From Eledone cirrhosa (lineage: Eukaryota): a stretch of DNA of 64,000 bases. The DNA is taken from contig OZ024740.1 in assembly GCA_964016885.1 (NCBI GenBank), positions 321,160,001 to 321,224,000 of the forward strand, given 5' to 3'. Position 1 is the stretch's first letter; each line of letters opens with the position of its first letter. Below, piece after piece: positions 7,498-63,737 of the stretch. The notes beneath the pieces were generated by a model. That model was not told where the DNA came from. It was given only the letters and a program-made list of their open reading frames with translations, and searched no databases. Position numbers and translations under genes: made by a program.

Positions 7498-7698
7498 CCG
7501 TATGTGACAGCTGAGAGAAAAAAGTAAAAAAAGTACTCAATACCGAAGTAGAGTTTTAATATTCATTTGTTAAGGTTAAATAGTGAGTCTTGTTACTCTG
7601 GAGTTTCACCTGTTTATCACAGGGTCATCAGACAGTTCTTGTGATAAACAGGCGAAATTCCAGAGTAACAAGACAATGTTTAGCCTTAATAAAATGTA
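7498..7698 (-). mobile_element. Fold-back PLE-like element with hammerhead
   Basis: Inverted arms ~7562-7621 / 7640-7698, tail on the left, TA flanks. Confidence 0.7.
7591..7634 (-). ncRNA. Minimal type I hammerhead ribozyme
   Basis: TGT-CTGATGA-cCCTGT(gataa)ACAGGt-GAAA-CTC(ca)GAG-TA-ACA, GUA site; the other arm repeats the 3' half ACAGGC-GAAA...GAGTAACA. Confidence 0.75.
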
Positions 7699-8529
7699 TA
7701 TATATGCTATAAAACAGCTGTTTTATACCAATTGACTGTAATTGTAGTTATTTTCTGTGCTTGAACATCCTACATCTTATAAATTTATTTCCTCAACACT
7801 TCATAAGGTAACAAATTCGAACTTCAAATGTTATATATATATAGAGAATTATAAAATAAGAGGAAATATTAGACAAAAATATACCTATTTTTTCTTCAAA
7901 ATCCCGACTGTACAGTTTCGCTGATCCATATGCAACAACTGTACATTATAGATAAGCACCATCATTGTGAGGCCAATCAGCTTGTCAAGGAACACCTCAG
8001 AGAAAAGGACTGTTCTCTAGACGTGTTTCCAGCGTCCAACCCTTGCAAGCAGGGAAAAACGGACGTAAAATGATGATGATGATGATGATATTTATAAAGA
8101 AATAAATTGATAGATAAAAATATTGTTAAAATATGAAATGGAAGACTGTATAGCAGATAGAAATATAAAGAATTGCTATGTATGAGGAATTACCTCAGAA
8201 ATACTCATATCTGATACACTTTGCTATCACAGTTGTATGTTGCTAGCCTTCTACCTTTGACCATGTGTTATCACTCTCTTTTACCACCACCTGTCTCTAT
8301 TACAACCCATCATAAGTTATCTCTCTTACCCTCTCTTTCTTTCCACACCAGCAAATATGTATCTGTCATCATTGTCTTTCCTCCAATACTCTCTCTCATT
8401 CTCTCTTCTACTATCTCTCACCTGCTGTCCACTCTGTTCCACCTAACATACTAATACTTCCCCCTCACTCTGGTTTTTGTATCATCAGTGAACCTCATTT
8501 CTATCCCTCTTCTGGGTCACAAAAAACCC

Positions 8530-11719: not shown

Positions 11720-13760
11720 TCTTATATGTATGTATATATATTTCAATGCAGAAGTAAATGATAAAGTAGAAAATCAAACTTTCCAGTTGTTGTCTTCCTG
11801 TTTCTTCTACAACAACTACAATGGTACGCGATGGGGCCCACCCACAGCCCCGGCGGACAGAATGGAGAAGGCGTTTCCCCGGAGGACGGCAAGGGAGACA
11901 CGCTGGAAAAGCCACTCCAACTTGCAGGGCTCACACCTGCGGCTAGCCATCTCAGCCCCTATGGTGGTGAATAAGGAGGTAGCCCTGACCGAGGACATCA
12001 GAAGTTTCCACTGCCAGGGGTACAACTGCAAACTTGTTGGAGAGCGACCAGTATTTGAGGAGTTTGACCCCCTCAGCCCGACGTGCAGCAGAACCTGGGT
12101 CAGTCGCAGACTGCACCAGGTTGCGGCTGCAGAAAGTGTCGGTGCAAGTGGAATCCCAGACGAGGGGTTTGCCACCGTGGAATGGGAAGATGGTCATGCC
12201 ATCTGGCCTTTTGCCATCCCCTTGATCCAGCCCCACCGGCTCGAGCTGGGAAGGGAAGCCTGCAGCATCCAAGCCATGCTTAATGACCTTATTGAGGGCA
12301 GTATGGCGTGGAATGCAGCTGGCACTGTCGCGACAGGAAAGCGGGTGGAGGCCGAAAGAGTCCACGGTGGAACCGCAGCGACATTGGTGTGGCTGGCAGA
12401 TCCGGAGGCCGAGCCTCAGGCAAATGCCGATGCACAGGCTATGGTTGTCTAGCTGCGTGCCAGCGGAGAAGGAGGGCAGGGCATGGAGCCAGGCACCACT
12501 GTGGGGTTTGGAGCCCGCACGAAAACAAGCAAGGCGGTGCTGGTCGAGCTGCCGGGTCGAGCTGCCGCGTGAGCCTGTCTGAGGCCAGGCTGCACTGGAT
12601 GGCATCCCCTGTGCGTTGGGGGGACTTGACGTCAACAGAGGGAGAAGGAGGAGGGATGTCTACTGGGCTAAATCCCAGCTGGTCCTACATCTCACAGGCG
12701 GCCTCACGTTCTCTGAACACAGAGGGTTCTGTTGTGTTTTGAAGAACCCTGCTGACAAGGACGCGGCATGAGGTTACTGACAAAGCTAGTGAGATCAGGG
12801 ACCGGAGGCCAAGGCCGCCATACCTGACAGGTAAAGTGGCCTGTTGTCACCCTATGTGGAGGATAGGGGGTACCTGAGGGTGGGGTGTGTGGCGTCCCTG
12901 GGCACGCTTGAATGGGCGCTTGCCCAAAGGATGAGACATTGGCCTTGACGAAGGCCGTTTTGGACCGGCCGCCCCGGTCAGCGCCAGAGCTGGGGAGGCC
13001 GAGGGTGAGTGGGGCGAAATAGAATAGCCGCTCCCAGTCACTGGCTCGATTGGAGTCCAGGGCGCTCTCAATCGAGGAAGCAAGGGTATCGGCTACCGGC
13101 ACCCGTGCCGCTCTCGATATCCTGAGTGGAATATTCCGGAGCTGCCTGAGCCGAGCAATGTTGACCAGCGAGGCTTAGGCGCCAGGCAAGCTCGCTGTCC
13201 CAGCTGGTGGTGTGCCAGACAGCCATGGCTGGGAAGACGTGGGGAAGAGGCAGCTCCTGCACTTCCATGCTGCAAGGGCATTAGAAGCTCGGTGAGTCAA
13301 GCCAACGCAGGTGAGGTGGTGGAAGCAGCCACACTCCAAACAGTTCCGGCCCCTCTTCCGTTTGTTAGTGGTGCTGCAAGTGCTGCAGGTGTCGGCTTGG
13401 AGGGATGGGGGATGGGGCGTGGGGCCGGGGACTGGGCACCGAGCGGCATCAGGGGTGGGTGGCTGGCGTGTGTGGGTGGAAGGGAAAGTGCTGGTAAGAG
13501 GGCCTCATAGCTCACCTATATATATATAGAGGTGTGAGAAAAGAAGGGGCTGCATGGAGGGGGACACACAGGAAGGTAGAATGTTAGTAAATTAATGAGT
13601 GAATGGATGCATGTACAAACAGGGGGGGGGAAACAGGGGGTTGTTCCCAGCTGAAAGACCCAGAGTTCAGCATGCACACATGCGAGCAACTTAGCAGTTT
13701 GTCATAGGACCTTGTGGTTGGAGGTGAGTCACTGATGCTGGGGTTGGCTTCCTCTTGTTA
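11720..13760 (-). mobile_element. CRE-clade non-LTR retrotransposon relic, RT domain deleted
   Basis: SGAWLHALP...CRCGSTVDSFGLHPLSC..RH...RPDG...WD...AE..K..KY (Zn knuckle plus PD-(D/E)xK endonuclease), C-terminal QRVSLAVLRGNA, and an N-terminal VADTLASSIESAL..W..L segment; 5' boundary uncertain. Confidence 0.88.
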
Positions 13761-17799: not shown

Positions 17800-19655
17800 C
17801 CCCCCCGCCATCTGGGATCATATACAGCAAAAGACAGGCAAAAGGGGCGGACAACCGAGCCGCTACCAGAGTAAAAGATAACAGTATCACGAGGAGTACT
17901 GGGAAACCTCTAATGATTTTTGAGACAAGCCAAGGTTTAGCTCCGTGTGCCGCGCGGAGCAATCGACATTCAGGCGGCAAGAAAGACCGTGGAGGCCTGT
18001 GGAGTCAAGGAGTTTGTCACATCGACACCTCAAACCCGTACAGACGTCAGCTCCCACTCTGAGGGCGATGGAGACACGAAGTTAATCCAAGCTGAGTAGG
18101 CCACCAACGTTAGGCATGGGTAGGGTATCAACCCAGTCATCTGAGTATTTGGCGTTGACAGACAGTAGGCGGCACCTTGAAAACTGATCCGACTGGACGA
18201 AGAGGGAGTCGAAGGTAGCCATCGAACCTATGCTGTCCCAAGCTCTCTGATTTCGACTGTCTTCCACCTTCTCAGAACAGATGGATAAGCCCAGCTCACT
18301 CGATTGCTGGAGAGCTTCATCCAACACCCTGTTGGAACTAGTCCATGTTGGAGAGTAGAGGATGTTGCTCACCAGGGTGGAGAAAAGGAAGCAGAAGAAA
18401 GAGAGATGGACGAACATTTACGAAGACCAAGACCCCCAAATCGCTTGGCAACGCAGTCTGATCGCGGGTCTCTGGTGTGAGCCTGACATTGACCAAGCAC
18501 TCGAGTCTTTCGAATATTAGGTCATCGAAGCGTTGGAGGCATGACAGAAATCTGTGAGGAGGGCTGACCCTGAGCATATATAGAAGCCTAGGAATCGAAA
18601 GTTAGTTTCTGAGTATGATTGCTTCAATATTCTTCAGCAACTGCTCAAGGCAAACCACCTTCGATTGGAAGATTGACTCGAAGGCAAGTCTGTAATTGGG
18701 GTTCCTAAGGAGCACCAAACCGACGGGGGAGGGATCGCAATGGAAGAGAAGGACTCTGTAAACAGGTCAATTGTCTGTTGATGTTGAGAAGCCGGGTGGT
18801 TGAGGATCCAGAGCTCACATTTGGATCTATTGACCTGGAGACCCCAACGGCCAAGCTCCTCAACCATTTTGTTAGCAGTGGCGAGAACCTTATCCAGAGG
18901 GCCCCCTAAACAAGCGTCCTCAAGATACCAGGCGTTGAGGTCCAACTCAACCCCCATGTTGGTAATGTCATCAATGCCCAATGCAAACAGAGCGGGCCCG
19001 AGTGGGTCGCCCTGTTGTACTCCTGAGGCAGAGGTGATGATTTGGTCACCAAAAGAGAGGTAGGAGGGATCCCGATAAGCCTGCCAAGCAAAGTGGTAGA
19101 GTTGTGGGACCCTCTCTCTTACTGAGCTGAGGACGGCATCGCGGCTGACAAAGTTGAAGGCATTCTTGAGATCAAGTTTGAGGATGACCCTGGGTCACAT
19201 GGACAGCAAGTTAGTAAAGGCTCACATCCCAACTTGAGTGAGCCAGAGACCGATAGCAAACATACCTTTGCAGTGAGACAGCGAAGGGTGCAACCAACCG
19301 CAATGGGGCGCAGGTCTCCGTTGGGTGTAGTGAGACCGAATAATTTCGCACCAAAGAACTGTGGGCGGATATAAGGGAGAACGTTCACTGAAGAGAACTG
19401 ATTCACAAACTGAGTCGGACTGTCGAAGAGATCGAGTCCAGCGCCACCGACCGATAAGGAGATACCATCCTTGAGGTGTTGAGTTCGAAGACCGTCAATC
19501 CCTGCGCCTGAACCAGCGGGGAAGGATGAAATCGCCTTTATGATGCTATCAGTGGTGTAGACCGGTCTCGAGTATTCTGGTGGTTCGGGCCAGTGTAACT
19601 GATCATCTGTGGGTGCCGATGGGTGCTTCTCTTTCAGTCACTCAAGAGAATCCCC
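17800..19655 (-). mobile_element. Second, divergent CRE-clade retrotransposon relic with RT
   Basis: GSGAGIDGLRTQHL, LRPIAVGCTLR, DLKNAFN, GVQQGDPLGPALF, WYLED (YxDD-like), then CRCDKLLDSTGLHGLSC..RH; many frameshifts. Confidence 0.9.
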
Positions 19656-27447: not shown

Positions 27448-27529
<82 letters not shown>

Positions 27530-27656
27530 AAAGTTCTATTTAAATTGTTGGGATACAACAAGCAAATATTATTATAACTGATATAAAGCACTCGACAAAT
27601 ATTTGGAGTAGATATACGATATTAATAAATGGAAACTATATTTATAAAACCATATT

Positions 27657-27721
27657 TATTTCATTATATATATTTCAAGGATACCAAGTTAAATCATGGT
27701 ATGCCTTCATCAGACAAAATA
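27657..27721 (-). ncRNA. Minimal type I hammerhead ribozyme (left arm)
   Basis: Reverse complement of 28385-28449. Confidence 0.85.
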
Positions 27722-28384
27722 CAATATATAACAGTTTTACAAATAGATATTGATGTACCCTTTCAAAAAGGTGACCGTTGTTTTTGGAGGCCATCCGGAT
27801 AGTGGTTTGTTTACTTTAGTAAGTCATAGTGTTAAGAGTAAGTAAAAAGATGAAGAGAGAGAGAGAGAGAAACGTGGAGAAAAGAAAGGGAAAGATAGAT
27901 AAAGAAAAAGAAGAAAGCAAAAAGAAAAGAGAACAGAGGAAAAATAACGGGGAGATATCAAAACATTAGAAATATTAATATTCGTGAATGGAATATATAT
28001 ATTCCATTCACGAATATTAATATTTCTAATTTTATTCATTTCATCTCAATTGTTAACTCAACTTAATATAACTTAAGGTTTTCGTTCTCTCCCCCTCTCT
28101 CTATCTCTACATATCTCTCTCTTGAGTTCTTTCTCCGTCTAATGTTTTGATATCTCCCCGTTATTTTTCCTCTGTTCTCTTTTCTTTTTGCTTTCTTCTT
28201 TTTCTTTATCTATCTTTCCCTTTCTTTTCTCCACGTTTCTCTCTCTCTCTCTTCATCTTTTTACTTACTCTTAACACTATGACTTACTAAAGTAAACAAA
28301 CCACTATCCGGATGGCCTCCAAAAACAACGGTCACCTTTTTGAAAGGGTACGTCAATATCTATTTGTAAAACTGTTATATATTG

Positions 28385-28449
28385 TATTTTGTCTGATGAA
28401 GGCATACCATGATTTAACTTGGTATCCTTGAAATATATATAATGAAATA
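28385..28449 (+). ncRNA. Minimal type I hammerhead ribozyme (right arm)
   Basis: TATTTTGT-CTGATGA-AGGCATACCA(10 nt)TGGTATCCTT-GAAA-TATATA-TA-ATGAAATA: 8-bp stem I, palindromic stem III, AUA site. Confidence 0.85.
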
Positions 28450-28950
28450 AATATGGTTTTATAAATATAGTTTCCATTTATTAATATTGTATATATATAT
28501 ATATTCAACCCGTATTTTTCTCAACAAGAAGTCTTCCTCTTTTTTTAGAGGTCACGTGTTACAGCAACATTGAACTACTCGATTCAGTAGCTAGCATTCT
28601 GTGCAGATGTGTGCACTTTAAAGACAAAATGTTGAGATTGGTATCCTGCTGAGGACGTGCAGCAGCCCAAATTGCGTAATGTCTGCTGATATTACGCAAT
28701 TATCTACATATAACACTTTTAATAACTGTTATAGACAGAATGCTGCGCAGAAATGAGATTCGTCCAAGAATTTGATACAGAAGTATCATTACCACTGCCA
28801 TCTTACTCATTAATTAACTAAATGTGTACACTCTAATGATAGCCTGCACTTTCTCAGTTGCAAGCTATTATCTCGTTGAAAAAAAAAAATATCACTCTTT
28901 CTGTAAATACCTTATAAGATTATGAGTTACCGTTTTACCTGTAAACACAG

Positions 28951-28990
<40 letters not shown>

Positions 28991-28995
28991 GTATG

Positions 28996-29047
<52 letters not shown>

Positions 29048-29271
29048 AATGATGAATCAAAACATAACAGATATGTTTAGAATTTTGTGTTTCTCAAGAA
29101 GTAAGCTCAATAGACTTTATGTAGACTTTATTTAGAGCCATAATAACCAAATTAAAAGATATATGTTTATATAGAGAAAGAGCCCTATATCGTAACAAAA
29201 ACATGGTATATTGTATATATACCAAATACATATTCAATAGAAGAATATGTACACAGCTGGAATCGTAAGTG

Positions 29272-29428
29272 AAACTTTATAGCGCCATTTCATACCTGGA
29301 GAGTATGACTAAAAATCGATCTATGTAATCGATCATTGAAAGAAAAATCAATCAATATATTCGATCATCGAAGACAAACTATCGATTATGATTAAACCAA
29401 ATGAGACTCAGGTACTCTTCAGCGGTTT
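29272..29428 (-). ncRNA. Hammerhead with long stem II (left arm)
   Basis: aaaccg-CTGAAGA-GTACCTG...CAGGTAT-GAAA-TGGCGCTA-TA-AAGTTT. Confidence 0.65.
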
Positions 29429-29720
29429 AGTCTCATCATACTAAGGGAAATATGGAATGAAAATGGTAAATAAATCAATATACCTGGGAATATCACAGCT
29501 AAGTTCAACGCGACCACCATGCTGAGAAGCACATAATCACCGTTCCTATTTCTAGCGTTATTATCGTCCACCTTGTGGATATCTATTCGCCATAGGTTTA
29601 ATGTTATTTCACCATGTGCTTCTCAGCATGGTGGTCGCGTTGGACTTAGCTGTGATATTCCCAGGTATATTGATTTATTTACCATCTTCATTCTATATTT
29701 CCCTTCGAATGGTACGACTC

Positions 29721-29867
29721 AACCTCTGAAGAGTAACTGAGTCTCATTTGGTTTAATCATAATCGATAGTTTGTCTTCGATGATCGAATATATTGATTGA
29801 TTTTTTCTTTCTTTCGATGATCGATTACATAGATCGATTTTTAGGTATGAAACAGCGCTATAAGGTT
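29721..29867 (+). ncRNA. Hammerhead with long stem II (right arm)
   Basis: AACCT-CTGAAGA-GTAACTGA...(116-nt stem II region)...TTAGGTAT-GAAA-CAGCGCTA-TA-AGGTT. Confidence 0.7.
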
Positions 29868-30002
29868 TAATCTACGATTCCATCTGTGTACATATTCTTC
29901 TATTGAATATGTATTTGGTATATATACAATATACCGTGTTTCTGTTACGATATATGGCCCTTTCTCTTCTCTTTATATATAAACATATATCTTTTAATTT
30001 GG

Positions 30003-30037
<35 letters not shown>

Positions 30038-30040
<3 letters not shown>

Positions 30041-30268
30041 TAAAGTAAGTTTCTTTAATATATCCCACGCGTTTAGGAACAAAGAAGTTGAAAATGCAAT
30101 TGAAATCTTTAAGAAAGTTTATTTACAATAATTTATAATTTTACCGGTTTCACAAGTTTCACGATTTTCAAAAGTTAAGAGAAATAGAGAAATGGAAAGA
30201 CATATGGCTATGCATAGCTACACATAAACCTTCTTATAGATTCCAATTGCATTTTCAACTTCTTTTCC
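30038..30268 (-). mobile_element. Fold-back element with a variant hammerhead
   Basis: Arms aaagaagttgaaaatgcaattg...ttta / taaa...caattgcattttcaacttcttt; minus strand 30137-30176 reads AACTT-TTGAAAA-...-GAAA-CCGG-TA-AAATT. Confidence 0.6.
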
Positions 30269-30305
<37 letters not shown>

Positions 30306-30381
30306 TATACATATATATACATTTATATATACATATATATATACATACATATATATACATATATATACATTTATATATACA

Positions 30382-30421
<40 letters not shown>

Positions 30422-30422
<1 letters not shown>

Positions 30423-30780
30423 ATTAGTAAAAAGGAAAAGAAAATGCTGACAAATTTTTCCAAGTGAAAATTAGTTTAATTAGGAATAAGTATAAATTAG
30501 TAATAAGTATTAGTTAGTATTCAGTTTTAGTTTTAAGTTTTTATCGGTTGCGCATTTCTTATGCTTTTCAAAAATAATTTTGAGATAGAGCGCTCGTGGA
30601 GCACTTTATCTCAAAATATCGCAACCGGTAAAAACTTAAAACTGAAACTGAATACTAACTAATACTTATTACTAATTTATACATATTCCTAATCAAACTA
30701 TTTTTCACTGGGAAAAATTTGTCAGCATTTTCTTTTCCTTTTTACTAATATATTAATATATCACAACTCGTGTGTCACAC

Positions 30781-30783
<3 letters not shown>
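30422..30783 (+). mobile_element. Fold-back element with a variant hammerhead
   Basis: ~130-bp arms and a right tail; minus strand 30538-30575 reads TTT-TTGAAAA-GCAT(aagaa)ATGC-GCAA-CCGA-TA-AAAA. Confidence 0.7.
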
Positions 30784-30854
<71 letters not shown>

Positions 30855-30863
30855 AATAGAGGT

Positions 30864-30904
<41 letters not shown>

Positions 30905-31193
30905 GCATACACATATTGTATACTACTGAACAACGCGAACATGCATTATTATAAGCTATATATAAATACTAATACACTACATTAATTACTATTTTGACTG
31001 TAGGTACAATTATGTGCAGGTAGATAAAAAAAAAAGCAAAGTATTATTAATAATGAATAATAATAACAACAAGATGCATTTTAAATATTTTTTAACGTAT
31101 TAAAAGAAATTTTGAAAGGATCATAGCCAAGCAATAATTGGATCTAAGACAAGAGGAGTGAAATTACAAGCAGCAGTTATGTATTTATAGGCG

Positions 31194-31254
<61 letters not shown>

Positions 31255-31281
31255 TGTGTGTGTGTGCTTGTATATGTATAC

Positions 31282-31329
<48 letters not shown>

Positions 31330-31337
31330 ATACATAC

Positions 31338-31375
<38 letters not shown>

Positions 31376-31513
31376 ATATAGATACATACATATATATATA
31401 TATATCCACACACACACAAACGCACCCACACATACATATACTTTTTTCCAAGCGTGAAACTAATTAATACTTTGTTTTTTTTTTACTCTCTGCATTTGTT
31501 TTGTTTATTCTTG

Positions 31514-31572
<59 letters not shown>

Positions 31573-31683
31573 TAAAAGGAATTCCAACTTTGTCTGATTT
31601 ACTTTTTTTATTTACAATCCTTTAAAATTATAATGGTATTAGAATGAAATAGTATGGTAGAATATTAAATGTTAGGTGTTAAT

Positions 31684-31722
31684 TGAACAAGTACTTTCAT
31701 GCTTTCGCAATCTTCAGGTTCA
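31684..31722 (-). ncRNA. Minimal hammerhead ribozyme (left arm)
   Basis: Reverse complement of 31779-31817. Confidence 0.8.
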
Positions 31723-31778
31723 TATCCTGTGGTGACAGTCAAGTTGAAAATTGCAAACTTGACTGTCACCACAGAATA

Positions 31779-31817
31779 TGAACCTGAAGATTGCGAAAGC
31801 ATGAAAGTACTTGTTCA
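31779..31817 (+). ncRNA. Minimal hammerhead ribozyme (39 nt)
   Basis: TGAAC-CTGAAGA-tTGC(GAAA)GCAt-GAAA-GTAC-TT-GTTCA: 5-bp stem I, GNRA-capped stem II, palindromic GTAC stem III. Confidence 0.8.
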
Positions 31818-32078
31818 ATTAACACCTAACATTTAATATTCTACCATACTATTTCATTCTAATACCATTATAATTTTAAAGGATTGTAAATAAAAAAAGT
31901 AAATCAGACAAAGTTGGAATTCCTTTTATTAATATAATCTTCTATACACAATCATACACACCCGTGTATATTTATTTATCTATCTATCTCTCTCTCTATA
32001 TATATATACATACTACACACACACACACATATATATATACTATCTCTCTCTCTATATATATATATGTGTGTGTGTGTA

Positions 32079-32148
<70 letters not shown>

Positions 32149-32574
32149 TGTATTTGTGTTTTCTGGATTCAATGAGTTCAATACGAATCAACTTTAAGAT
32201 TGTGTAGAGCCTGTTACTACTATCTATTGTTTAAAGAAAAATATTTCCTTAAAACAAAAGGTTTCGTGCAGTTGACCTTAGTCAGTCAAACTCATCGGTG
32301 ATCAACTGAAATAATTGTTTCATACTGTCATTGATTAGTACGATTGCCTATGCCTAACGGTAGCTGTACGGAACCGTTGAGGATGAGGAAATTATCCCGT
32401 TTACCAACACCCAGTTGTATATATATATATATATATATATAGGGTGTCTCCAAAAATGTATACACACTTTGATAACCTCTACAGGCAATATGTATTTGCT
32501 GTTGAAGTGTGTATATATTATCTTGGGATACCCTGTATATATATATTTATATATATATATATATATACTTGGGG

Positions 32575-32855: not shown

Positions 32856-33008
32856 TCACTTTTGTAAACTGATGTTGTCGAGTCTCATCTGATCATAAGA
32901 CATCAACAACATAGTCAGCTCATATTTGTCGATCTTGCCATCTCTGTTGAGGTCACATTGCTCCAGTAGGACACGTTTCGATTCTTGAAGATCTTCATTG
33001 CTGTAATC
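32856..33008 (-). CDS. Cbp53E: Calbindin-32-like last coding exon (EF6 and stop)
   Basis: ttgcag|GATTACAGC...CAAAAGTGA, 153 nt, contains [18 protein letters not shown]. Confidence 0.93.
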   Translation of the reverse strand, partial: DYSNEDLQESKRVLLEQCDLNRDGKIDKYELTMLLMSYDQMRLDNISLQK

Positions 33009-33075
33009 CTGCAAGAAGCAAATAAAAAAAAGATACGTTCATTATTATATTAGTTAGACAGATTCATATGCAGTC

Positions 33076-33133
<58 letters not shown>

Positions 33134-33348
33134 CGAAGGAAATGTGGTAAGGAACCAGGTGGACCATAACGCACCAAAGTACTCAATACTTAGGGTAGTG
33201 TGGGTAATAGGAACGAGTAGGACCCCGACGGCTGAGCTCAAGCCGTTTCGACGGCTAATTCTGAGTCCAGAATTAGCCGTCGAAACGGCTTGAGCTCAGC
33301 CGTCGGGGTCCTACTCGTTCCTATATATATATATATAGAGAGAGAGAG

Positions 33349-33383
<35 letters not shown>

Positions 33384-33637
33384 CCTGCAATGCAATTTCC
33401 ATATACGAAATTTCACTCCAAAGCATTGGTTGACCCAAGATATTTCCTTGCTCAACGTGCCTTGTAGTGAGAACCCGAAAAAATGTGGTTGCAAAGCGAA
33501 ATTCTTAACCACCAGCTATGCCTGCACTTAATAACCATTTATTTATTGTCTTACCTCTTCAATAAGCTCCATCAAATCTTTTAAAAACCCATACAATTCT
33601 TCATCTTCTATAGTTCCATTTTTATCCTGTAAAACAA

Positions 33638-33686
<49 letters not shown>

Positions 33687-36600
33687 TAGATATGAGTATA
33701 TAGCGAGTGTGTATAAGATGTTGGACTGACTGAGTGTATAATGATCAACCAAAATACATTTTATCTATCTACAAAATTTCTGCTTTCGTGATTTTTGTCA
33801 AAGCCTTCAAATTACTATTTTCTTTTTTGAATATGTCAAGGTTATTCATGTAATTTCTTGAACTTGGTACGATGTTTCAAATTCATTAATTAACGAAATA
33901 TTAAAACATTATTTCAGACAGAACAAGGCATATTCATTCCTCTCTGATGTCATATATTCAACAGCGGTTTTTGTGTACTTCCACGTACTTTAGAGTAAAT
34001 TACATTTCCCTCAAAATAGTAGAAAACACCCAGTAAACCAATCAGTTAAACATCACAAATATTTCAGTTAAATATATGAAGAAGTTCTGCCAAAGGGACA
34101 CGATCGGAGAAAAGTTTCTACTGTTGTTGAAGTATTTTCAAGTTTTAGCTGAATAAATAATCGTCGTACCGAGAAATACTAGTCGAGAAACAATATTTTA
34201 TTTGGCTAAAATGTCCAACTTCAGTTTAAAACATTTGATTTCAGTACAATACGTCTAACTTCAATACAAATCATTCAATTTCACTTTAAAGCATTCAACT
34301 TCAATTTAAAACACCCAACTTCAGTTTAAAATATCTAATTTCAGTACAAAACATCCAACTTTAGTACAAAACAGCCAATTTCAGTTTAAAACCTTCAGTT
34401 TCAATTTGACACAACATAATGAATGAGTTAGTATTTATTGTAAATGGCTGTTTGCCAGTCTTCAACTAAGGCATTACACAATGCATCTAAATCAGAAGTA
34501 TCAATTCGTAAACGACCAAAATAAAATATATTAAAAAAATTGTACAAGATGTTGTGTGAAGCTGTTATACAGTGTAGTTAACTGGAAGAAATGTATAAAT
34601 TGTGTGAAATTATTGTACAGTTCACTGGAAGGATTGCACAAGATATGTCGAGCTGTTGTACAGTGTAGTTGAGATGAGGGAGTAGAGAAGTCACCGTGGT
34701 TAGTAAGAATTTACTTACTCTGTCGTACAAAGCAAAAACATGGTCCAAGTCATCTGTTGTAAATCCCTTTTCTCCCTGCAATGAAATCAATTACGAAATT
34801 GTAGATAATATCATCATTGGCATCAACAAATCACACATACGTGCCCCCCCCCCCATATATATATATATTGCAGAGATGTTGGTTATAATACAAATCCTAA
34901 CCTAACCTGGTAGGAATCAATCGATTAACAATATTTTTTTTGTTTCTTACTTTAAACATGGGACGGCACAGGAAATTTTCTTTTACTGGAAGCAATCTGG
35001 AAAAATAAAGATAAAAAAGTTTTATAATCACTACAACAAAATCCCACACACCAAGGGAGACAAACAGTACAAAAAACTTCATCCACCACACCATGCATAG
35101 AGATAAGTACCACAACGAAATCCCACCTACAAAACCATAGTAAGAAGCTTCAAAATAAAGCCCCACCTTCCGAGTCATAGTGACAAGCATCACAACAAAA
35201 CTCCGCCCCTAAACCAAGGGAGACAAGTACCACAACAAAACCCCGCCCACCAAGCCATAATTATAAACTTCACAACAAAACCATGTCAACAACATCACTG
35301 TGACAACCACCACCACCATAATGGTAAATCGGAGTTGAGTGGAAAAATATCGATAAAAATATCAATAAATGGGTTTTTAAACCCGAAAATATTTGAGATA
35401 ATTAAATTTGCTAAGGTAAAATTCTGTTGTCCTTATTCTTTCCTCTATAACGCCTATTACCTTGGCACCTTTAATATCCTATGCATTGTAGTGCTTTTAA
35501 ACTTATTTGTATCAATAAATGTATTTTAAGTTTATTTTTATATTTCCAACTAAACACCCCACTTTTAAGCTATAAACAAATGTTTTAAGAACAGTTTTTT
35601 TTTAAATTATTTTTTTTTGAATTTTCCGTTTTTTTAAGCGATCTGTGTTCCCATTTTTTAATATTTGAAAGTTCAGTCTTATGATCGATCTGGATTTTGT
35701 TATTCGATGTTATGAGGTTGGGGGCACTGTTGTTTGGTGTTATGATATTGGGGGTACTGTTGTTATTCGATGTTATGAGGTTGGGGGTACTGTTGTTTGG
35801 TGTTATGATGTTGGGGGTACTGTTGTTATTCGATGTTATGATGTTGGGGGTACTGTTGTTATTCGATGTTATGATGTTGGGGGTACTGTTGTTTGGTGTT
35901 ATGATGTTGGGGGTACTGTTGTTATTCGATGTTATGATGTTGGGGGTACTGTTGTTATTCGATGTTATGATGTTGGGGGTACTGTTATTCCATTTTATAA
36001 TTGACACCTAATCGAAGCTATATCTTTGATTCTATGCACCGAATGTTTATCTCAGTCTATACAATAACGATATACAACCAAATTGGAAGGGAGACCACAC
36101 TGTGATGGTAGTGTGTTTATATCTTTGCAGTACATCAATAACTACACCTATAATCAATGGTGGGACCACACTGTAATGGTAGTGTGTTTATATCTTTACA
36201 GTACATCAATGGTGGTTGTGTATTTAGCTCAGTCTGTACAACAATAATCACATATAGCCAAGGTGAAAGAGGAAGATAATGGTGTCAGTTGTAATTCTTA
36301 CTTACTTGGCCATTTCACTAAGCTGCAGTTTACCGTCGTTGTTTCGGTCAAAGAGTTTCAGCTGTGGAAAAATTATATATAAAAAAAGAAACGATGATAA
36401 TTTTGTAAAAATATCTGATATCGACAATCATCATCATGATTATCATCCTCATATTATTATTATTATTGTTTTTCCTTCTCCTTCAGTATTGTTTTCGTTA
36501 TATGCTGAGTGTCTTCCTGACACCTTGGGCAAATAAACTCACTGTCTACATTGGTAAGCCAGTTAACACACCACATTGATTATAATTTTCAGAGAGATAA

Positions 36601-39600
36601 TGCTCATCTCAATGCGTGTGCAGTACCAGTTAAAACAATTGTATGCACCTCTTGCAGAGAGGGTAAACCAAGGATCATTCTCAAATACTGTTCTGTTCAT
36701 TCCCAGTGCTCCCACAATCACTGGTATTGTAACGGCCTTGAGGTGACACATTATTTTCAATTTCAATGAGCAAATCTTTATATTTTCTTAGTTTGTCAAA
36801 TTATTTTGCCGCGATATTGTGATCACATGGGATGCTCATATCAAAAAATAAACAGGCCTTGCTATATTGGTCTTTTACAATTGGTCTATTAGCTTTTATG
36901 GCCCGGTCAGTATGTACAGGAAAGTTATTAGGGTCGGACGCCATGCTTTGATGCATAGAGTTACGGCTCTTGCCATTCTGAATTTAAATCCCGCCGAGGT
37001 TAACTGTGCCTTTCATCCTTACGGGGTCGATAAAATAAAGTACCAGTAATGCACTGGGTAATTGCTGGCCTTGTGCCTAAAGTAGAAACAATTATTATTA
37101 TTATTATTATCATTATTATTATTGGTCTAATCGGACGTATTTTGCTCGCTCCCAGTAAGTCGCTTTATTTGCCTGTTAAAATTATTTGTTGTTAAATATT
37201 TCTTGCTGTGTAAGGGATATAAGCCCTTATACTTTACCCTGTGAAGGGGAAAGTATAATATTTGGGCCTTTTGGCCCAAATATTTGAACTTTTTTTACAT
37301 TTTAAAAAATTTACGGAGAAAAAAAATAAACATGGCTGAGCCACGCCCCCCAGCGATATGTCTGCTGTCGTGCGACAACGACGTAGAAGTTGAGAGGAGC
37401 GCTACAGCGAAATTAACACAAATTGATAACACAAACACCACCACAAACAATGTAAACAAAGACACCAATGATACCAATGAGAACTCTAATTTTGAAAAAA
37501 AATGACAGTAACAGCGACAACGAAAATACAAATAACAAAAAAAAAAATGACAAATGCAACAACAATATCAACACCACTAACATGAAAACAAATAGCGACA
37601 ACACAAACAGCAACAATACCAACTGCACCGAGAACAACGGTGGCAACAAAGACAACAATGATAACAGCGACAGTGATAACAACAACACCAATAAGAACAA
37701 CGACAACGACAACAACACCCCCAACGAAAACAAGAAGAACACTTTCGCTGCGGCAGCAGCAAAAAATAGGCCATGCTTCAACATGGACCTCTCAAACGAA
37801 GATGAAAAGTTGGCCCAGGCATGGAAGCTCATCAAGCAAGAGCAAACCTGGGCAAACTTAACTGTCCCGGTAGAAGCTATTGAGGCAGTGGAGCGCAGAA
37901 CGGTGCATTATAGATGCATCTCAGCACAAACCAAAAGGGCAGCTTTAATCCCACAAGCAGATGTCGAAGTCGCGCTGAGGTGCATCAGAGAAGACACCGA
38001 ATACATAGAGAGAGGCAGACAGTACGGCACCATTTCAGTGTTGTTCAAGTCAGAAGCCCTCGCTATGAAACACGCTATGACTCCTTGCAAAACTAGCAAG
38101 GTCATAATGTACCCATCCCACATGGGAAAAAGAACGGCCCGTCTCCGCATTCCCAGAATTCCACCAGGACTTGACATGTGATGGCTTCTGGGATGTGTGA
38201 TTGTGGAGGGGACGGATACCGTCCCTATAGAAGTGACCAGAACGGTCAGAGAGGACTGGTCCGGGGTTGACCTGGAGATCCTTCTCCAGATCAGGCCCGA
38301 GAATGGGAAGACAATCCCGGACCACATCCGCCTTCAGAATGGGACGGTCATTCACATTATGACCGAAGGCAAAAGGCCGCAGTGTTTTGTTTGTGGGAAA
38401 AAAACCCATTTGCGAGCCTTCTACCCTCAACTGCTGAAAGAGGCAAGGGGTCGAAAGGTTCCACTGCTGCCGACGCCGGGGCGAGGACCACAACCAATAC
38501 CAGCACCGGCAAAACCACCACCAACAACACCAATAGAAAGACCACCACCAACATTGACCACCCAGGGGGGAAACTAGGAAAGCTGTCACCCCCCCCCCCC
38601 CAAAAAAAAATACACACACCAATAAAACCATAAACATACATGCAGACACACTTACAGACACAGACCCCTCATCTACCAGTAGTGAAGATGAGGGAAAACC
38701 AAAATCCCTCAAAATACAAAAAAGGAAACACAAAAAGAAAAAGAAAACTCAACAAAGCACAAAATCACCCACAATAAAAAACGCAGACACCACCCACACA
38801 AACATCTCTCCAATAACACCAACATCAACACCAACATCAACACCACCATCACCATCACCAGAATCCCCCAAACGCAAACAACCTAAACAGACGCAAGAAC
38901 AAATATACACACAAACATCTAAAACCATAGACACCGCACTCACAACAAACACAGATACAACCGAAACAACACCACCAAAACCATCACCACCACAGACACG
39001 CAAACAAATAAAATCACACCAACAAAACATACAAAACTTCGTGCTCGTCAGGAGGGCCAACAAGGAACTGATGGCCCTATTAGCACGAAGTGAAAATATA
39101 CAAAAAGAGGGGGAAATTTTTAAATCGAGCACATTTCGCGTGCCGGAAGATTTGGTTCTGGTGCGAATGTCGCTCGATATATTCAAAGAAATACGAGACA
39201 GCTTTCCTCAGGACGTGGGAACACCGAACGTAAAACCCACTTCAAGACTTTTAAAGGGGTTCCCAAAAGAAACCCCACCAACTATGGAGGTCGAACAACC
39301 CGACCTTCACAAGAGCCCGGAAGGTAAGTAAACCTTCCTCTCTCTCTTTTTAACCTGCCAACATGGCCGTATTAAGAGTAGGATGTTTAAATGTTCGAGG
39401 CCTGGGACCGTCCTGGAAGCAGGGTCACCTGCTCAACGACCTCAGGTCTATAGAAATGGATGTAATTGCCGTCAGCGAGACCAGGATTTCCGACACGCGC
39501 GCACTAGCCCCCATTTTCGACGACTATCAGATCTTTGCATCTGTTAGTCGGCCGGGAATGGAAGGCAGGGTGGCAGTGCTGTTTAGGAAAGGCCTGGACC

Positions 39601-42600
39601 TCGAGGTAAGGTCGATCTTCCGGGACCCGGACGGGAAGCTGGTGGTCCTGGACGTGAACAATAATGAAGGTGGTGCCTTTAGACTGGTGGCCGTCTATGC
39701 TCCTACTGGGGAAGGACGGCCGGACTTCTTTAGACGCCTGGAAGCCTTTCTGGGTACGTCTCGCCCTTTACTGTTATCGGGGGACTGAAACGGCATCTTA
39801 GACGCACGCTGGGACTGTGTGGGAGTATCCGATAGGAGCGGGGGTGCAAAAGCCTCAAGAACCTGATCAGCCAGTTCCAACTGTCTGACAGGTACCGACT
39901 AGATTTCCCTAATGCGCCAGTGTGGACCTGGGCTAACCGCATAGGGTCATCTAGATCGTATATAGACAGGATATTCATTAGGAAAATAGACAGAAATAGT
40001 GTAAGCTGTCCACGTTTTGAAACGGTCGCCTATTCAGATCACAAGTTTGTGATCTGTATGGTCGGCCTAGATAAGACGCGTAGGTTAGGACCTGGTTACT
40101 GGAAGCTAAACATGTAATTTCCGGCACGTAAGGCTTACCGGGACCAGGTCAACAATTTAGTTAAGAAAAAGTTGACAGGGGGAATCGTCAACAATAGATG
40201 GTGGGGGGGGGGGGGGGGGGGGGGCTCTCAAAAGAGAGATTAGAGTAATGTCGATAGAGTTTAACAAAGAAGTAGCATTAGAGAAAAATAGAAAGGAGGG
40301 GGAGTTGGTAGATAAGTTAGACGAGGCTATTTGTAGTGGCATCGCAACTGACGTGCTAGCGGCGAGAATGGCATTAGACCATTTCTTCAATGCGAAACAC
40401 GAAGGTTGCATTGTCAGAGCTAAGGCGCGTGTTCTGAGAAACGAGGGAACCAAAGCTGTTCGATGGGCCCGCGTGCCAGAGGCGCAGCGTGGTAATAAAA
40501 CCACGATTCGGTCTTTGACGGACCGAGACGGGCACGAGCTGAGCGATTCCAAGAGGATGTGTGAGGCCTTTCGCCAACATTTTGCTCGGTTGTTCGGGGG
40601 AAGTGGCGGGTCAGAGATGGTGGCGGACTTCAGTCCCTACCTTGATGGCTTGCCGCAACTCTCGACGGCTGACGCTGGGCGCTGCGAAAGGCCAATTACT
40701 TCAGCCGAGATTCAGGATGCCCTTGTCGGCTTCATGAGGCGCAAGTCACCCAGTTTGGATGGTCTGCCCTACGAGCTTTACGTAAATATGCCAAATTTGT
40801 TCTCCAATCTCCTCGAAGCCCTCTACTGCAACTGGCAACAAAACGGGAGTAGTGACGCTGATAAGGAAAGACGAGAACAAGAGGGACACATTAGACAATT
40901 TCAGGCCCATAACTCTGCTCAACACAGAGTTTAAGATTTTGGCCAGGGTGTTAGCGAAGAGGTTGGCGCTTGTCGTCGGGGATTTGGTTGGGGAGGCGCA
41001 AACTTGCGCAATCCCAACCAGGTCCATACACGACAACCTCCACCTAATGCGATACATCATAGAGAGGGTAGGGTGTAAACCTGGCTTCGGTGGGGCTCTG
41101 ATCAATTTAGATCTATCGAAAGCATTCGATAGGGTCGACCATCGGTACCTGGAGGCTGTCCTCAAGGCGGCTGGCTTCGGCCCCGTCTTCAGAAGCTGGA
41201 TCGCTGCAATGCACAGCGGCACCTGCTCGATGGTCAAAATTAATGGCCACCTCTCGGAACCGTTTCAGGTCTCCCGATTGGTCCGTCAAGGGTGCCCTCT
41301 CTCCTCCCTTCTGTACGTATTGACTCTCGAGCCTTTACTGCGGAAGATGGAGCTGTTGCAGGGCATCCCGCTCGAACCGGGACGCGGAAAGGCTGTGTCG
41401 GCTTATGCGGACGACATCACCGTGACGGTGTCGGACACCTCAGCAATCGAGGTGGTCGGCAACTTATTGGAGGAATATGAAAGGTTGACGGGAGCAAAAC
41501 TTAACCCGGAAAAGTCAGTGAGCTTGCAACTCGGCACCTGGAGAGGCAAGTCCATGCCGTCCAACAGCGTCGTTAGGCGCTGGACGGACGGACCGGTAAA
41601 GTTGCTAGGGGTTTGGTTCGGGCCAGACCTCCAGGTGGATAAGAATTGGGACGAGGTGACGGGCAGGGTAGTCAGTCTCACCCAGAAATGGGCTGGGATG
41701 AAGCTATCACTGAAAGGTCGGGCGGAGGTGGCGAACGCGTACATCGCGTCCGTCATCTACTACCGTCTAACTGTCGTCCCTTGCCCCCGTTCGCGCCTCG
41801 CCATCTTGGAGCGGCTCCTCTTCAAATTCTTGTGGAGGGGTCAGATTCCACTGGTGAGGCGGTCCATCTGCTGCCAGCACTCTCTACGTGGAGGGCTGGG
41901 CATGCCGTGGCTAATGATGCGCAGGCACGCGCTGAGGCTGCGGCATCTCCAGATATTCTGCCTAAACGGTGAACAGGTGTGGTCGCCGTTTGTCAGACGG
42001 GCCTTTCCGCAGCTCGTTTCTTTGACTGAGTTGCAGTCCTGGGTCAAGAAGAGACCGAGACTGGGTGACTGGCATCTGGAATGTTGCCAGGCACTCACTA
42101 CCCTCTACCAGGCGGGCAATGCGGTCAGTGGAACTTCCACTCTCGAGTTCTATCGAGGATTAGTGGTGGGCAAGTGCGACGACGCATTCGGAGAGGCTCT
42201 GGGAGTCAACGAAGTCGAACTAACCAGTCTGTACCGGAGGACTTTCGAGCCGGGGACGATGGATAATTTCCAAAAATCCCTCGCTTGGCAGTGCTACGGG
42301 GGGGCACTGCCGGTTCGAGATAAACTCTACAGGCACGGAAGTGCTGTCAGACGGACCTGCCCGAGATGCGCGCAGAGCGACGAAACCGTTCTGCACGCAC
42401 TCGTCCAGTGTCCGTGCATTACTGACTTGTGGAGTTATGTTGAACAGCTGTTGTCGTGTGTAGAACGGATCCGGCTATCGGCCGAGTCCATAGTGAAGAT
42501 CGACCCGTCGCCTTCTTTTGGCCAAGAAGGGCAGGCAATTTTCCTCTGTCTGGTGGCAGTAGCGAAAGAGGTTGTATGGTGGACGAGGTTGAAAGGACTG

Positions 42601-45600
42601 AAGACAGACACTTTTCTCTTCGGCCAATCCCTCATCAACTTTTTCAAGTTTCACTTGGAAAGGAAGGTGAGGGTGGAGAGAGAAGCGCTGCCCCCCAGTA
42701 CATTTGCTGAAAGGTGGGTGATTGTGGCGAGAATGGCCCGTGTGAGTGGGCCTACTCTGGTCATGCGGCTGTAGGTAGGTAAATTTGAAGAGGAGAGGGG
42801 TGCCCTTCCAGGGTGCTCTCGAAGCGTCGGGTCGTTCAGGACTGGTGGGGTACCTGAGCGAACCCTAGGTGGTCATCCCCCCATTGGGGAATTTTTTCTT
42901 GTTGTAATTTTATTGTTACTTTATTGTTACTTTGTTATTGTTACTTTGTTATTGTTATTCATATTGTTTACTCGATTTTTCTGTAAAACCCCACTGTCCC
43001 AGTCTTTTGTATTGTCCCCTATATGTCGGCCCTTGTGGCCAATAAATGAAATCATTATTATTATTATTATTATTATTTCCATTATCATTTTTATTGCGCA
43101 TCATTAATGCTTTACCGAGCACAGCTCTGTGCGCCTAGGGTATTAACAGTGTTATTTGATATGCTGTGGTAAAGAGAACGTAAAGACAGTAGGCAACTTG
43201 TAATATCAAGATATGTGATATGACTGATATGACTGAGAAGATATATGATATAACTTACAATGGTATCAGCATATATTATATGACTGAGAAGATATATTAT
43301 ATAACTTACAATGGTATCAGCGTATATGATATGACTGAGAAAATATATGTTATAACTTACAATGATATTAGTATATATGATATAACTTACAATGGTATCA
43401 GCATATGTGATAAGTTCGTCTTCAGTGATATCCTTTTCTGTGTTGTTCTGTTTCAGCAGGTGACGGAGAAATTTCTGAAAATATCAACAAAAATAAACAA
43501 TTGTTAGCAACAATAACAACACGACGACAAAAGCCAAAACAACAACACCAACAGCAGCAGCAGCAGCAGTACCAGTAATAACTACAACAGCAGCAATGTC
43601 AACACCAAACACAACAACAACAATCACAACAGCAAAAACAACAACAGCAGCACAAGTAAGAACAATAGCTACAGCAACAACAACACCAAACACAACAACA
43701 GCGACAACAATTTTGGGATTCTATTAATGCTATTGTTATTGTTGTTGTTGATATGTAATAATAATTGTTTCTACTTTAGGCACAAGGCCAGCAATTATCC
43801 CAGTGCATTACTGGTACTTTATTTTATCGACCTCGTAAGGATGAAAGGCAAAGTCAACCTCGGCGGGATTTGAACTCAGATCGTAAAGGGACGTAACTAT
43901 GCTGGAATATGTAATAATAATGAAGTATCTACATTAGTTGTTATTTCTATTGAAGTACGATATAAACTTTATTATTTTGGATTGGCAGTATCGGTAGAGG
44001 GTCGGACACCATGCTTTTCAACATAGTTACGTCCCTTTACGATCTGAGTTCAAATCCCACCGAGGTTAACTTTGCCTTTCATCCTTACGGGGTCGATAAA
44101 ATAAAGTACCAGTAATCCACTGGGATAATTGCTGGCCTTATGCCAAAAGTAGAAACAATTATTTATACGTTTATTATATTAATTTACCAGATTTATGTGA
44201 AATGTAGGCCTCCAATGTTAGTGCTAATCCCAGTCCAGATGTGAAATGTAGGCCTCCAATGTTAGTGCTAGTCCCAGTCCAGATGTGAAATGTAGGCCTC
44301 CAATGTTAGTGCTAATCCCAGTCCAGATGTGAAATGTAGGCCTCCAAAGTTAGTGCTAGTCCCAGTCCAGATGTGAAATGTTGGTTTCCAAAATTAGTGC
44401 TAGTCCCAGTCCAGATGTGAAATGTTGGTTTCCAAAATTAGTGCTAGTCCCAGTCCAGATGTGAAATGTAGGCCTCCAAAGTTAGTGCTAGTCCCAGTCC
44501 AGATGTGAAATGTAGGCCTCCAAAGTTAGTGCTAGTCCCAGTCCAGATGTGAAATGTTGGTTTCCAAAATTAGTGCTAGTCCCAGTCCAGATGTGAAATG
44601 TAGGCTTCCAAAGTTAGTGCTAGTCCCAGTCCAGATGTGAAATGTTGGTTTCCAAAGTTAGTGCTAGTCCCAGTCCAGATGTGAAATGTTGGTTTCCAAA
44701 ATTAGTGCTAGTCCCAGTCCAGATGTGAAATGTAGGCTTTCAAAGTTAGTACTAGTCCCAGTTCAGATGTGAAATGTAGGTCTCTAAAGTTAGTACTCGT
44801 CCCAGCCCAGATGTCAAATGTAGGCTTCCAAAATTAGTGCTAGTTCCAATACAGATGTGAAACGTAGGCCTCCAAAGTTATGCTAGTTCCAGTCCAGATG
44901 TGAAATATAGGCCAGTGCAAAGCTGGTAATATGGCCGGACCAGATGTGAAATATAAAACCCCAAAGCTAGTGATAGTTCCAGACTAGATCTGAACTATAG
45001 GCCTGTGCAATGTTGGTACTAGGTCTAGATCATGTGAAATGTAAACCTCCAGACCTGGTAATAGGCCCAGTCCAGATATTTAAATTACCCTCACTTTAAA
45101 CCTCTATGCAACCAGTCATAAATACATTTGATTTATTTATGGGTTACAGGGCTATATACATGGACATGTATTGTATATGATGTAATAAGAAGAGTTGAAA
45201 TTAACGCATGCAAGATTTCACAGCTCTAACATCACTCCTTTTCAATCAGCCTATGAAGTTTTCAGCCCATTCTCGTATTTACATGGAGCAGAATACAACA
45301 AACGAATTAGAATTGTTGTTGCTGCTGTTGTTGTTGTTGTTGTTGAAGATGATGATGATGATCTCAACTAAAGTATTGATTATATCTTGTCTGTTATGTC
45401 TGTTATATATTTTCAATGACCACAGTCTGATATATATGGGTGGTTTCTTGGTCCCACAATAAAACATTGTATATAGGTGATAGATTCATTGCCATCAGAC
45501 TGTGGTCATTGAAAATATATAACTGACATAACAGACAAGATATAATCAATACTTTAGTTGAGAATATCATCATCATCATCATCATCATCAACAGCAACAA

Positions 45601-46694
45601 CAATAACATCATCATCATCATCGTTTAACGTCCATCTTCCACGCTAGCATGGGTTAGACGGTTTTGTTCCATTTGATGCGGGATTGGTTGGGAGACCGTG
45701 TCTCGCTCGTGCGGCAGTGTCTCTGGCTGGATGCCCTTCCTAACACCAACCACTTTTACAGTGTGGACTGGGAGCCTTTTTACCATGTCTCCTAGACGAC
45801 CACTTTACAGTGTATATACGAGGTGTGTCAGAAAAGTTCCAGGACTGATGCCACAAAAGATTTATTTCAAACCCAAACCTCACACTAAGAGTTTTCTCCT
45901 TCAAAGTAATCCCCCTGGAGTATGTAACTGTAATCTTAGCTCTCTGCAGCGATCAAACTTTTTTCTTCATAATTTTATATACATGTCCTCTGTTTCAGGT
46001 CGTCAAGCAATGAGCACAGAGCAACGAACTAACTTGAAGTTTCTGGTACGGCTGGGGAAAACTCCGTCAGAAGCACTGGGATTGCTGCAGCTAGTGTATG
46101 GAGATGAGACGATGTCACGCTCACATGTTTTTGAGTGGTGCAAGATGACCGCAGGAGCGGAAGGCTCTCAACAACCAGGACTGAGGTCAACGTTGAGCGC
46201 GTCAGGCAGATGGTACGTAGCGATCGTCGGCTGACTGTTCGACTGATGGCAAATGAGCTGGGCATGAATCGGGACAGCGTCTGAAAGATTCTCACTGAAG
46301 ATTTGGACATGCGGAAAGTCTACGCGAAGATGGTGACAAAACTGCTGAACGATAACTAGAAGGGTCGACGCATGCAAGTGTGCCAGGACATCCTCGAGCG
46401 TCTTGAAACCGAACCAGACTTGCTAGGGACAGTCATCACCGGTGATGAGTCATGAATCTTCGAGTACGACCCGGAGGAGACCCGTTTTGAAGACGTGGAC
46501 GACATCAAAAAGGCCGTGACGACAGAACTGCGGAGGATCCCGGAAGAATCCTTCCAGGAGTGCATGCAAGCGTGGCAGAAAAGGATGGAAAAGTGCACTA
46601 GACACCAGGGGGATTACTTTGAAGGAGAACACTCTTAGTGTGAAGTTTGGGTTTGAAATAAATCTTTTGTCCTGGAACGTTTCTGACACACCCC

Positions 46695-47000: not shown

Positions 47001-48033
47001 ATTGGAAAATGTGTGAGATCCTTGGTAGAGTTAAGTATATTTGAAAAAAAGGAAAAGAATGACTTCACTTGTAGTGTTAAAAAATTTATGATTTAATGTT
47101 ATAATATAATATTATAACATTAAATCATAAATATTTTAACACTACAAGTGAAGTCATTCTTTTCCTTTTTTCAAATATATATATATATATATATTTCTCC
47201 TCCTGTTCCGTGCTAACCACCATCCTAAACCTTGTTTTTAGTAACCACACAGCTCCTTTCGTTTCATAACTTTTGTATATATATATATGTATATATATAT
47301 ATGTATATATATATATGTATATATATATATGTATATATATATATGTATATATATATATGTATATATATACAAATATAACATTAAATATGTTTGAATTATG
47401 TGCTTCTCAATAAATTAGCTCAATAGACAATATTAAGTCAAAAGTAGAAGTACATAGCGAAAGAAAGAATCATATATCCAGAGATGACACAGTATATTGT
47501 ACATATACTAAATACATATTTCAGAGAAAAACATGTAGTCAAGATGGAATCAAAAGTCACTCTACGGCGCCATTTCGTTAACTGTAAATTGTGATTTAAA
47601 ACCGCTCTATGTGAACGGATATCTTGAGTATATGTTCTTCTCTCTAATATGTATTTAGTATATATATATACAATATACTGTGTCTTCTTTGGATATATGG
47701 TTCTTTCTCCCCCCCCCCCCTCTCTCTCTCTATATATATATATACATATATCTTCTACTTTTGACTATATATATATATATATATATATATGTAGTAATAA
47801 TTGTTTCTACTTTTGGCACAAGGCCAGTAATTACCCAATACATTACTGGTACTTTATTTTATCGACCCCGTAAGGATGAAAGGCAAAGTTAACCTCGGCG
47901 GGATTTGAACTCAGATTGGCAAGGGCCGTAACTCTATGCGTCAAAGCATCGTGTCCGACCCTCTACCGATACTGCCAATCCACCGCAATAATAATAATAT
48001 ATATGCATTATATATATATATATAAATAATACG

Positions 48034-63298: not shown

Positions 63299-63340
63299 CA
63301 TACATACATACATACATACATACATACATACATACATACA

Positions 63341-63369
<29 letters not shown>

Positions 63370-63371
<2 letters not shown>

Positions 63372-63652: not shown

Positions 63653-63737
63653 AACATACATACATACATACATACATACATACATACATACATACATACA
63701 TACATACATACATACATACATACATACATACATACAT

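Follow-up and report, generated by a model that had tools for sequence, protein, structure and literature searches.

Two neighbouring fold-back elements, called E1 and E2 here, raise the question whether they carry real hammerhead ribozymes, and whether a hammerhead changed at position 13 could be multiplied in a genome and still cut its RNA. The role of the hammerhead in Penelope-like elements (PLEs) is itself an open question (PMC8557442, PMC11167929). The first-pass annotation had proposed that both elements bear UUGAAAA in place of the usual first core box, compensated as a U3-A8 pair, and that E2 has C13 as well. The U3-A8 part alone is ordinary, and the new part is position 13. The window means the whole stretch of 64,000 nucleotides that was analysed, and the features of the two elements are collected in Table 1.

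Table 1. Positions of E1, E2 and the adjoining TA-rich tracts in the window
Feature	Positions	Strand	Basis
(TA)n tract flanking E1	30004-30038	.	
E1 fold-back, motif within loop	30040-30268	-	
E1 motif: U3-A8, canonical GAAA, intact ACCGGU palindrome, degenerate stem II	30142-30171	-	
TA-rich microsatellite between E1 and E2	30269-30424	.	
E2 left arm: 5'-truncated inverted copy with motif and AT-rich 3' region, into (TA)n	30422-30598	-	
E2 type I minimal hammerhead-like motif	30542-30571	-	sequence and family letters
E2 core I	U3 30571, A8 30566, A9 30565	-	sequence
E2 stem II	30564-30561/30555-30552	-	sequence
E2 second box	G12 30551, C13 30550, A14, A15.1 30548	-	sequence
E2 palindrome CCGA, U16.1 and A17	30547-30544, 30543, 30542	-	sequence
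E2 right arm; keeps GCAA CCGG UA at 30621-30630	30599-30750	+	arm alignment
E2 one-sided tail, 33 nt, missing from other arm	30751-30783	+	
(TA)n tract right of E2	30784-30901	.	

Both UUGAAAA motifs were confirmed in the two dissimilar elements, and they lie on the minus strand, which had not been given before. Read on this strand, the motif of E2 is composed of UUGAAAA, GCAU-AAGAA-AUGC, GCAA, CCGA and UA, and that of E1 of UUGAAAA, 13 nt, GAAA, CCGG and UA. The first core box with a Watson-Crick 3-8 pair (U3-A8) was found in both, as were A15.1-U16.1 and an H17 letter (A...UA). Stem II of E2 was perfect as annotated, with four Watson-Crick pairs (GCAU/AUGC) closed by G-C and a predicted folding energy of -1.4 kcal/mol. 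The stem II of E1 started with U-U followed by weak pairs and was unfolded alone by prediction (0.0 kcal/mol), which bears out the suspicion that this copy is weak in stem II; it is probably dead. In stem I three of six pairs could be formed in E2 and five of six in E1, all of them A-U. E1 has the GAAA box with A13, and also A17, and E2 departs from the G12-A13-A14-A15.1 box by C13 in place of A13. The palindrome expected in PLEs between 15.1 and 16.1 is CCGG in E1, in the right arm of E2 and in most reads, and is broken in the left arm of E2.

The inverted repeat of E2 (30411-30552/30620-30761) covers 142 nt with 94% identity, and 146 of 157 letters were identical when the arms were aligned. 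The presence of GCAA in both arms (30551-30548 minus, 30621-30624 plus) had been used as an argument against a single-arm mutation; the letters are indeed there, but the two arms derive from one insertion and thus are not independent evidence for GCAA. In the right arm a deletion of about 21 nt covers core I together with most of stem II, so this arm is not a second hammerhead. In 51 contigs of sequencing run X5 the tail of E2 also appeared as a loose end. For E1, 64 of 75 aligned letters were identical between the arms inside 30081-30265, with a one-sided tail of about 41 nt (approximately 30040-30080). The AT-rich 3' region of E2 (30653-30750) has TACTAAC and then a pyrimidine tract, resembling the 3' end of an intron. 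Introns can occur within PLE repeats.

PLE insertions were described to consist of an inverted 5'-truncated copy with a 30-40-bp tail at one end, placed in microsatellite targets (PMC8557442), and the tail was described in PMC11167929 as well. E1 and E2 have this layout of inverted truncated copy, one-sided 33-41-nt tail and (TA)n flanks, as in the insertions of Craig et al. 2021 (PMC8557442) and Frangieh et al. 2024 (PMC11167929); unlike those, they are only relics of 230-360 bp, which are assigned to none of the PLE clades (Poseidon, Neptune, Naiad, Hydra). ORF lists and Pfam on 8 and 7 selected frames revealed neither a PLE reverse transcriptase nor a GIY-YIG frame in the window, so the link to PLEs is drawn from layout and motif. 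In addition, head-to-tail tandem units each with a hammerhead, the signature of non-LTR retrozymes, were not observed at the E1 and E2 loci. By layout and motif, E1 and E2 are likely PLE relics.

Canonical minimal hammerheads (min-HHRs) exist in neighbouring fold-backs. The fold-back 27609-28497 has CUGAUGA/GAAA in both arms (27713 minus, 28393 plus) and is young, with 362-nt arms of 98.6% identity, a long stem II, a TATATA palindrome and a nested 72-nt palindrome (27962-28033). In the near-perfect fold-back 31565-31936 each arm likewise has a canonical min-HHR (31717 minus, 31784 plus), with U-U at the base of stem II, a GTAC palindrome and five of six stem I pairs. A further CUGAUGA...GAAA C U C min-HHR was seen near 7631 (minus) in the fold-back 7559-7701, the other arm of which is without core I, like that of E2. 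No hammerhead was found in the fold-back 29143-30006 between (TA)n tracts, which has 192-nt arms of 94% identity, outer arms of 91% and a related sequence at 47462-47709. A similar 8-mer was observed in the one-sided tails of four unrelated fold-backs, at 28507 (AACCCGTA), 30073 (AACGCGTG), 30765 (AACTCGTG) and 31959 (CACCCGTG); its pattern has 16 matches in the window, and it may represent a conserved signal for PLE priming or recognition.

At 32856-34790 the minus strand holds the final exons of a calbindin-32/secretagogin-like EF-hand gene, which ends at 32856. The last of these exons has a relative (P0001, 78% identity), which came out closest to a calbindin-32-like cluster of mostly molluscan members; the DNA is therefore likely from a mollusc. 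The motifs of E1 and E2 lie on the sense strand of this gene, 2.3-2.7 kb past its stop, with five polyadenylation-like hexamers between. The window is repeat-rich animal DNA, in which LINE-type reverse transcriptase frames occur beside a mariner-like fragment. The repeats at 37456-42774, 11952-13174, 18634-19637, 63130-63973 and 45677-46234 comprise one near-complete LINE (endonuclease, reverse transcriptase, zinc finger), two other reverse transcriptase-like remnants, one further retroelement-like frame and the mariner-like fragment. A 7.2-kb satellite (50958-58152) has 168 copies of a 43-nt unit.

At gathering score Rfam matched no hammerhead anywhere in the window, and its 104 matches in 27500-32200, taken up to E=10, included none either. 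The neighbouring canonical min-HHRs were missed too, so the Rfam test is insensitive to this subtype. Scanning with the motif pattern gave 0 matches in metagenome contigs and 0 in viral contigs; two matches in prokaryote genomes were both inside 480-aa ORFs and were taken as chance. A loose U3-A8 descriptor was found twice in the window against 0.5 expected, and 9 of 100 simulations reached two, which is not significant; for canonical minimal hammerheads the numbers were 4 observed against 0.09 expected. The pattern common to E1 and E2 had two matches in the window and none in 100 shuffles, being written from those two copies. The main support for the motifs is the read data and the genomic setting, not the window statistics.

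Reads and contigs were aligned to 30425-30770 at 80% likeness from four of 18 listed runs, X16 (reduced-representation DNA, organism label A), X1 (label A), X5 (label C) and X4 (label B); the list contains no RNA run. On E2 there were 3017 reads of X16 and 2053, 1821 and 2 contigs of X1, X5 and X4. The family is dispersed and abundant, with thousands of reads and contigs (reads, not copies) having many start places. C13 was present in about 89% of X16 reads, and A13 was the minority letter (270 of 2533 X16 reads, 1.7% of contig depth in X1 and 34% in X5). C13 is a family trait, the majority letter in X16, X1 and X5 and under two organism labels, and the earlier view that it is not a one-off mutation held. 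CCGG rather than CCGA was found in 2339 of 2499 X16 reads (94%) and in 99% and 75% of the depth of X1 and X5; the CCGA of the left arm is private to the window copy and not a family trait. Labels A and C differ in the subfamily markers at 30512, 30529 and 30560 but agree in having mostly C13, which is therefore likely older than their split. The change at 30560 (84% in X16, 94% in X1, 0.8% in X5) adds a fifth pair to stem II.

An A13 sister family was revealed by one X4 contig (record 10), which matched only at 30540-30573 and diverged on both sides, and two groups of X16 loose ends (258 and 237) also matched only there, with divergence on both sides. This family has the 34-nt hammerhead in common with the E2 family but not the flanking sequence; read by eye, its downstream flank is similar to E1.

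Among the rows listed (40 of 90), differences occurred at 2 of 25 positions in core and stems, at 3 of 5 in loop II and at 15 of 50 in the tail (Fisher p 0.02 and 0.04), a conservation which may be overstated because of the partial list, the selection at 80% likeness, which favours similar copies, and the reduced library of X16; positions of the family cannot be phased. In the same 40 of 90 rows the four stem II pairs and the other core bases were unchanged in the C13 subfamilies, and C3 or G8 did not appear, so the 3-8 covariation that the first-pass annotation wished to see in family copies was not observed there. Several other signals in the read data were rejected. The sharp X16 ends at 30495, 30579, 30691 and 30716 were not accepted as element boundaries; three coincide with AATT in the window, and so does the fourth once 30694 takes its majority letter, so that a restriction enzyme is the likely cause. 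Peaks of depth at the hammerhead gave no proof of conservation, since reads of the tail are divided between the two arms. Also unsupported was an ORF that ends at the core TGA (...SALSQNYF-stop), since the loose-end consensuses, compared by eye, differed from each other mostly in ways that change the amino acid. Upstream of 30598, the X1 and X5 loose ends appear by eye to form a hairpin closely upstream of the hammerhead, pairing with 30583-30592, kept across variants, and the window copy of E2 appears truncated in the loop of this hairpin, where the inverted arm begins.

Natural U3-A8 hammerheads were reported in 2011 (Perreault et al., PMC3088659), and about 1,300 U3-A8 motifs were found in Schistosoma PLEs with a search descriptor of their own (Cervera and De la Pena 2014, PMC4209133). 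The U3-A8 core could thus be accepted as a known compensated 3-8 pair, and the novelty first attributed to it had to be given up. In PMC4209133 a UUGAAAA example is printed, and pairs of min-HHRs on opposite strands are 100-700 bp apart. E1 and E2 resemble the Cercyon U3-A8 min-HHRs of Schistosoma mansoni described there in type I order, palindromic stem III region, UUGAAAA, G10.1-C11.1, short stem I in U-rich or AU-rich flanks, and single or opposite-strand copies from truncated elements. Unlike those, most E2-family reads have C13, where Fig. S3 of that paper gives GAAA and once AGAAA as second box; moreover, E2 is without an extra base after A9, the palindrome is the 4-nt CCGG, and the window holds no PLE ORF. 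The compensated 3-8 pair is also shared with Perreault et al. (PMC3088659), in which, as far as that source was covered, the variation at position 13 is an insertion (U13a), whereas here it is a substitution. A likeness in the short palindromic stem III and the link to PLEs exists with the small hammerheads of Lunse, Weinberg and Breaker 2017, which cleave as dimers, according to the title and a review (PMC6765202).

Family-wide C13 is apparently unreported so far, and the kind of element and the U3-A8 core are already known. Substitutions of A13 sharply reduce hammerhead activity. GAAA, including A13, was listed among the strictly conserved bases (PMC10945747). No natural A13C or C13 hammerhead was found in the literature covered, which was mostly non-subscription and did not include Lunse et al. 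2017, and no measured effect of A13C was found in the accessible parts of PMC3088659 with its supplements, PMC6155905, PMC10945747, PMC2553840, PMC11014351, PMC7151607 and PMC11791167.

The window copies of E1 and E2 are likely both inactive by folding prediction. For E2 this follows from its private CCGA, which would pair at -1.3 kcal/mol against -8.3 kcal/mol for CCGG, and from burial in its own hairpin, as the minus-strand transcript is predicted to fold at -196.6 kcal/mol with G12-A17 inside. For E1 it follows from the lack of a stable stem II; its motif sits in the loop of its own hairpin in the predicted fold. In addition, C13 creates a competing self-complementary hexamer, UGCGCA, which prevails in the predicted dimer fold of the E2 copy. 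PLE min-HHRs are slow even if canonical, with low cleavage seen only in dimers or stem-III mimics (PMC4209133).

It is rather probable that the motifs of E1 and E2 are type I min-HHRs of PLEs and that the C13-majority E2 lineage spread with a weakened or dead ribozyme. An active ancestor with U3-A8 and A13 would have dimerised through the ACCGGU palindrome to cleave after A17, and A13C would have arisen once, in a master copy, before the subfamilies of the two organism labels split. Retrotransposition would then have continued and the lineage been amplified despite A13C because cleavage may be dispensable for insertion, with the fold-backs being the presumed inverted 5'-truncated copies typical of PLE insertion. 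Catalytic mutants of the hammerhead left insertion by purified PLE protein unaffected in vitro (PMC11167929), and Naiads spread without canonical HHRs (PMC8557442). That the rest of the core is conserved in the different C13 subfamilies could reflect continued selection for cleavage just as well as recent descent.

In the main rival reading the C13 family is a working variant, in which C13 and A17 would swap the A13-C17 core contact as a second compensation beyond U3-A8, and could give back a contact of purine and pyrimidine between 13 and 17. A non-canonical C17-A13 pair has been published (PMC7092961), E2 has A17 with no change at 30542 among the 40 of 90 rows listed, C13 is common to subfamilies that differ at three markers with stem and core unchanged in those rows, and one marker lengthens stem II. 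We consider this variant unlikely, since A13 copy E1 has A17 too, so that no 13-17 covariation is seen between the two copies, and the changes between C13 subfamilies are too few to prove constraint; the isostericity of C13-A17 is presumed, and the slowness of canonical PLE min-HHRs also counts against it. In a full pairwise scan of one hammerhead the U-turn region was rescued only by a G3-C8 swap (PMC9901934), so U3-A8 may be context-dependent or already cost activity. It is accordingly doubtful that a high-copy retroelement family of an invertebrate uses a doubly compensated core, U3-A8 plus C13-A17, in which nature would have swapped a core contact regarded as invariant, with a GCAA box which all GAAA-based searches would miss; if true, some of the 'missing' ribozymes in PLE clades could be GCAA-box hammerheads.

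The motif could also be kept as a structural or dimerisation signal, stem II, ACCGGU and UGCGCA serving to pair two RNAs or to bind the element protein. The predicted energy of the ACCGGU duplex (-8.3 kcal/mol), the UGCGCA pairing in the predicted homodimer, the retained CCGG in the three runs and the predicted dimer of purified PLE protein (PMC11167929) are in its favour, but the case is one of folding predictions only, a single master copy as common ancestor accounts for the data equally well, and such a role appears quite improbable. Still further from the data is the idea that the motifs resemble hammerheads by chance, in fold-back DNA that is AT-rich and MITE-like, and do not descend from them. 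The non-significant loose descriptor, the absent Rfam match and the two chance matches in prokaryotes would agree with it, but it is very improbable and already largely refuted: the motifs of E1 and E2 are identical at 21 of their 30 positions, and at 11 of the 12 in the core, against 7, 13 and 13 of 30 in the ungapped flanks, the sister family with canonical GAAA shares the motif only, and canonical hammerheads occur in neighbouring fold-backs that have this layout. The derivation of both motifs from hammerheads, as first annotated, is thereby sustained.

With the weakened or dead ribozyme as the preferred reading, the C13 family amplified beside its A13 sister is a natural experiment on the role of the hammerhead in PLEs. 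If C13 cuts, the hammerhead consensus would need a new allowed pair, and genome searches would have missed a class. If C13 is dead, the family would give genomic evidence that the spread of these elements does not need cleavage.
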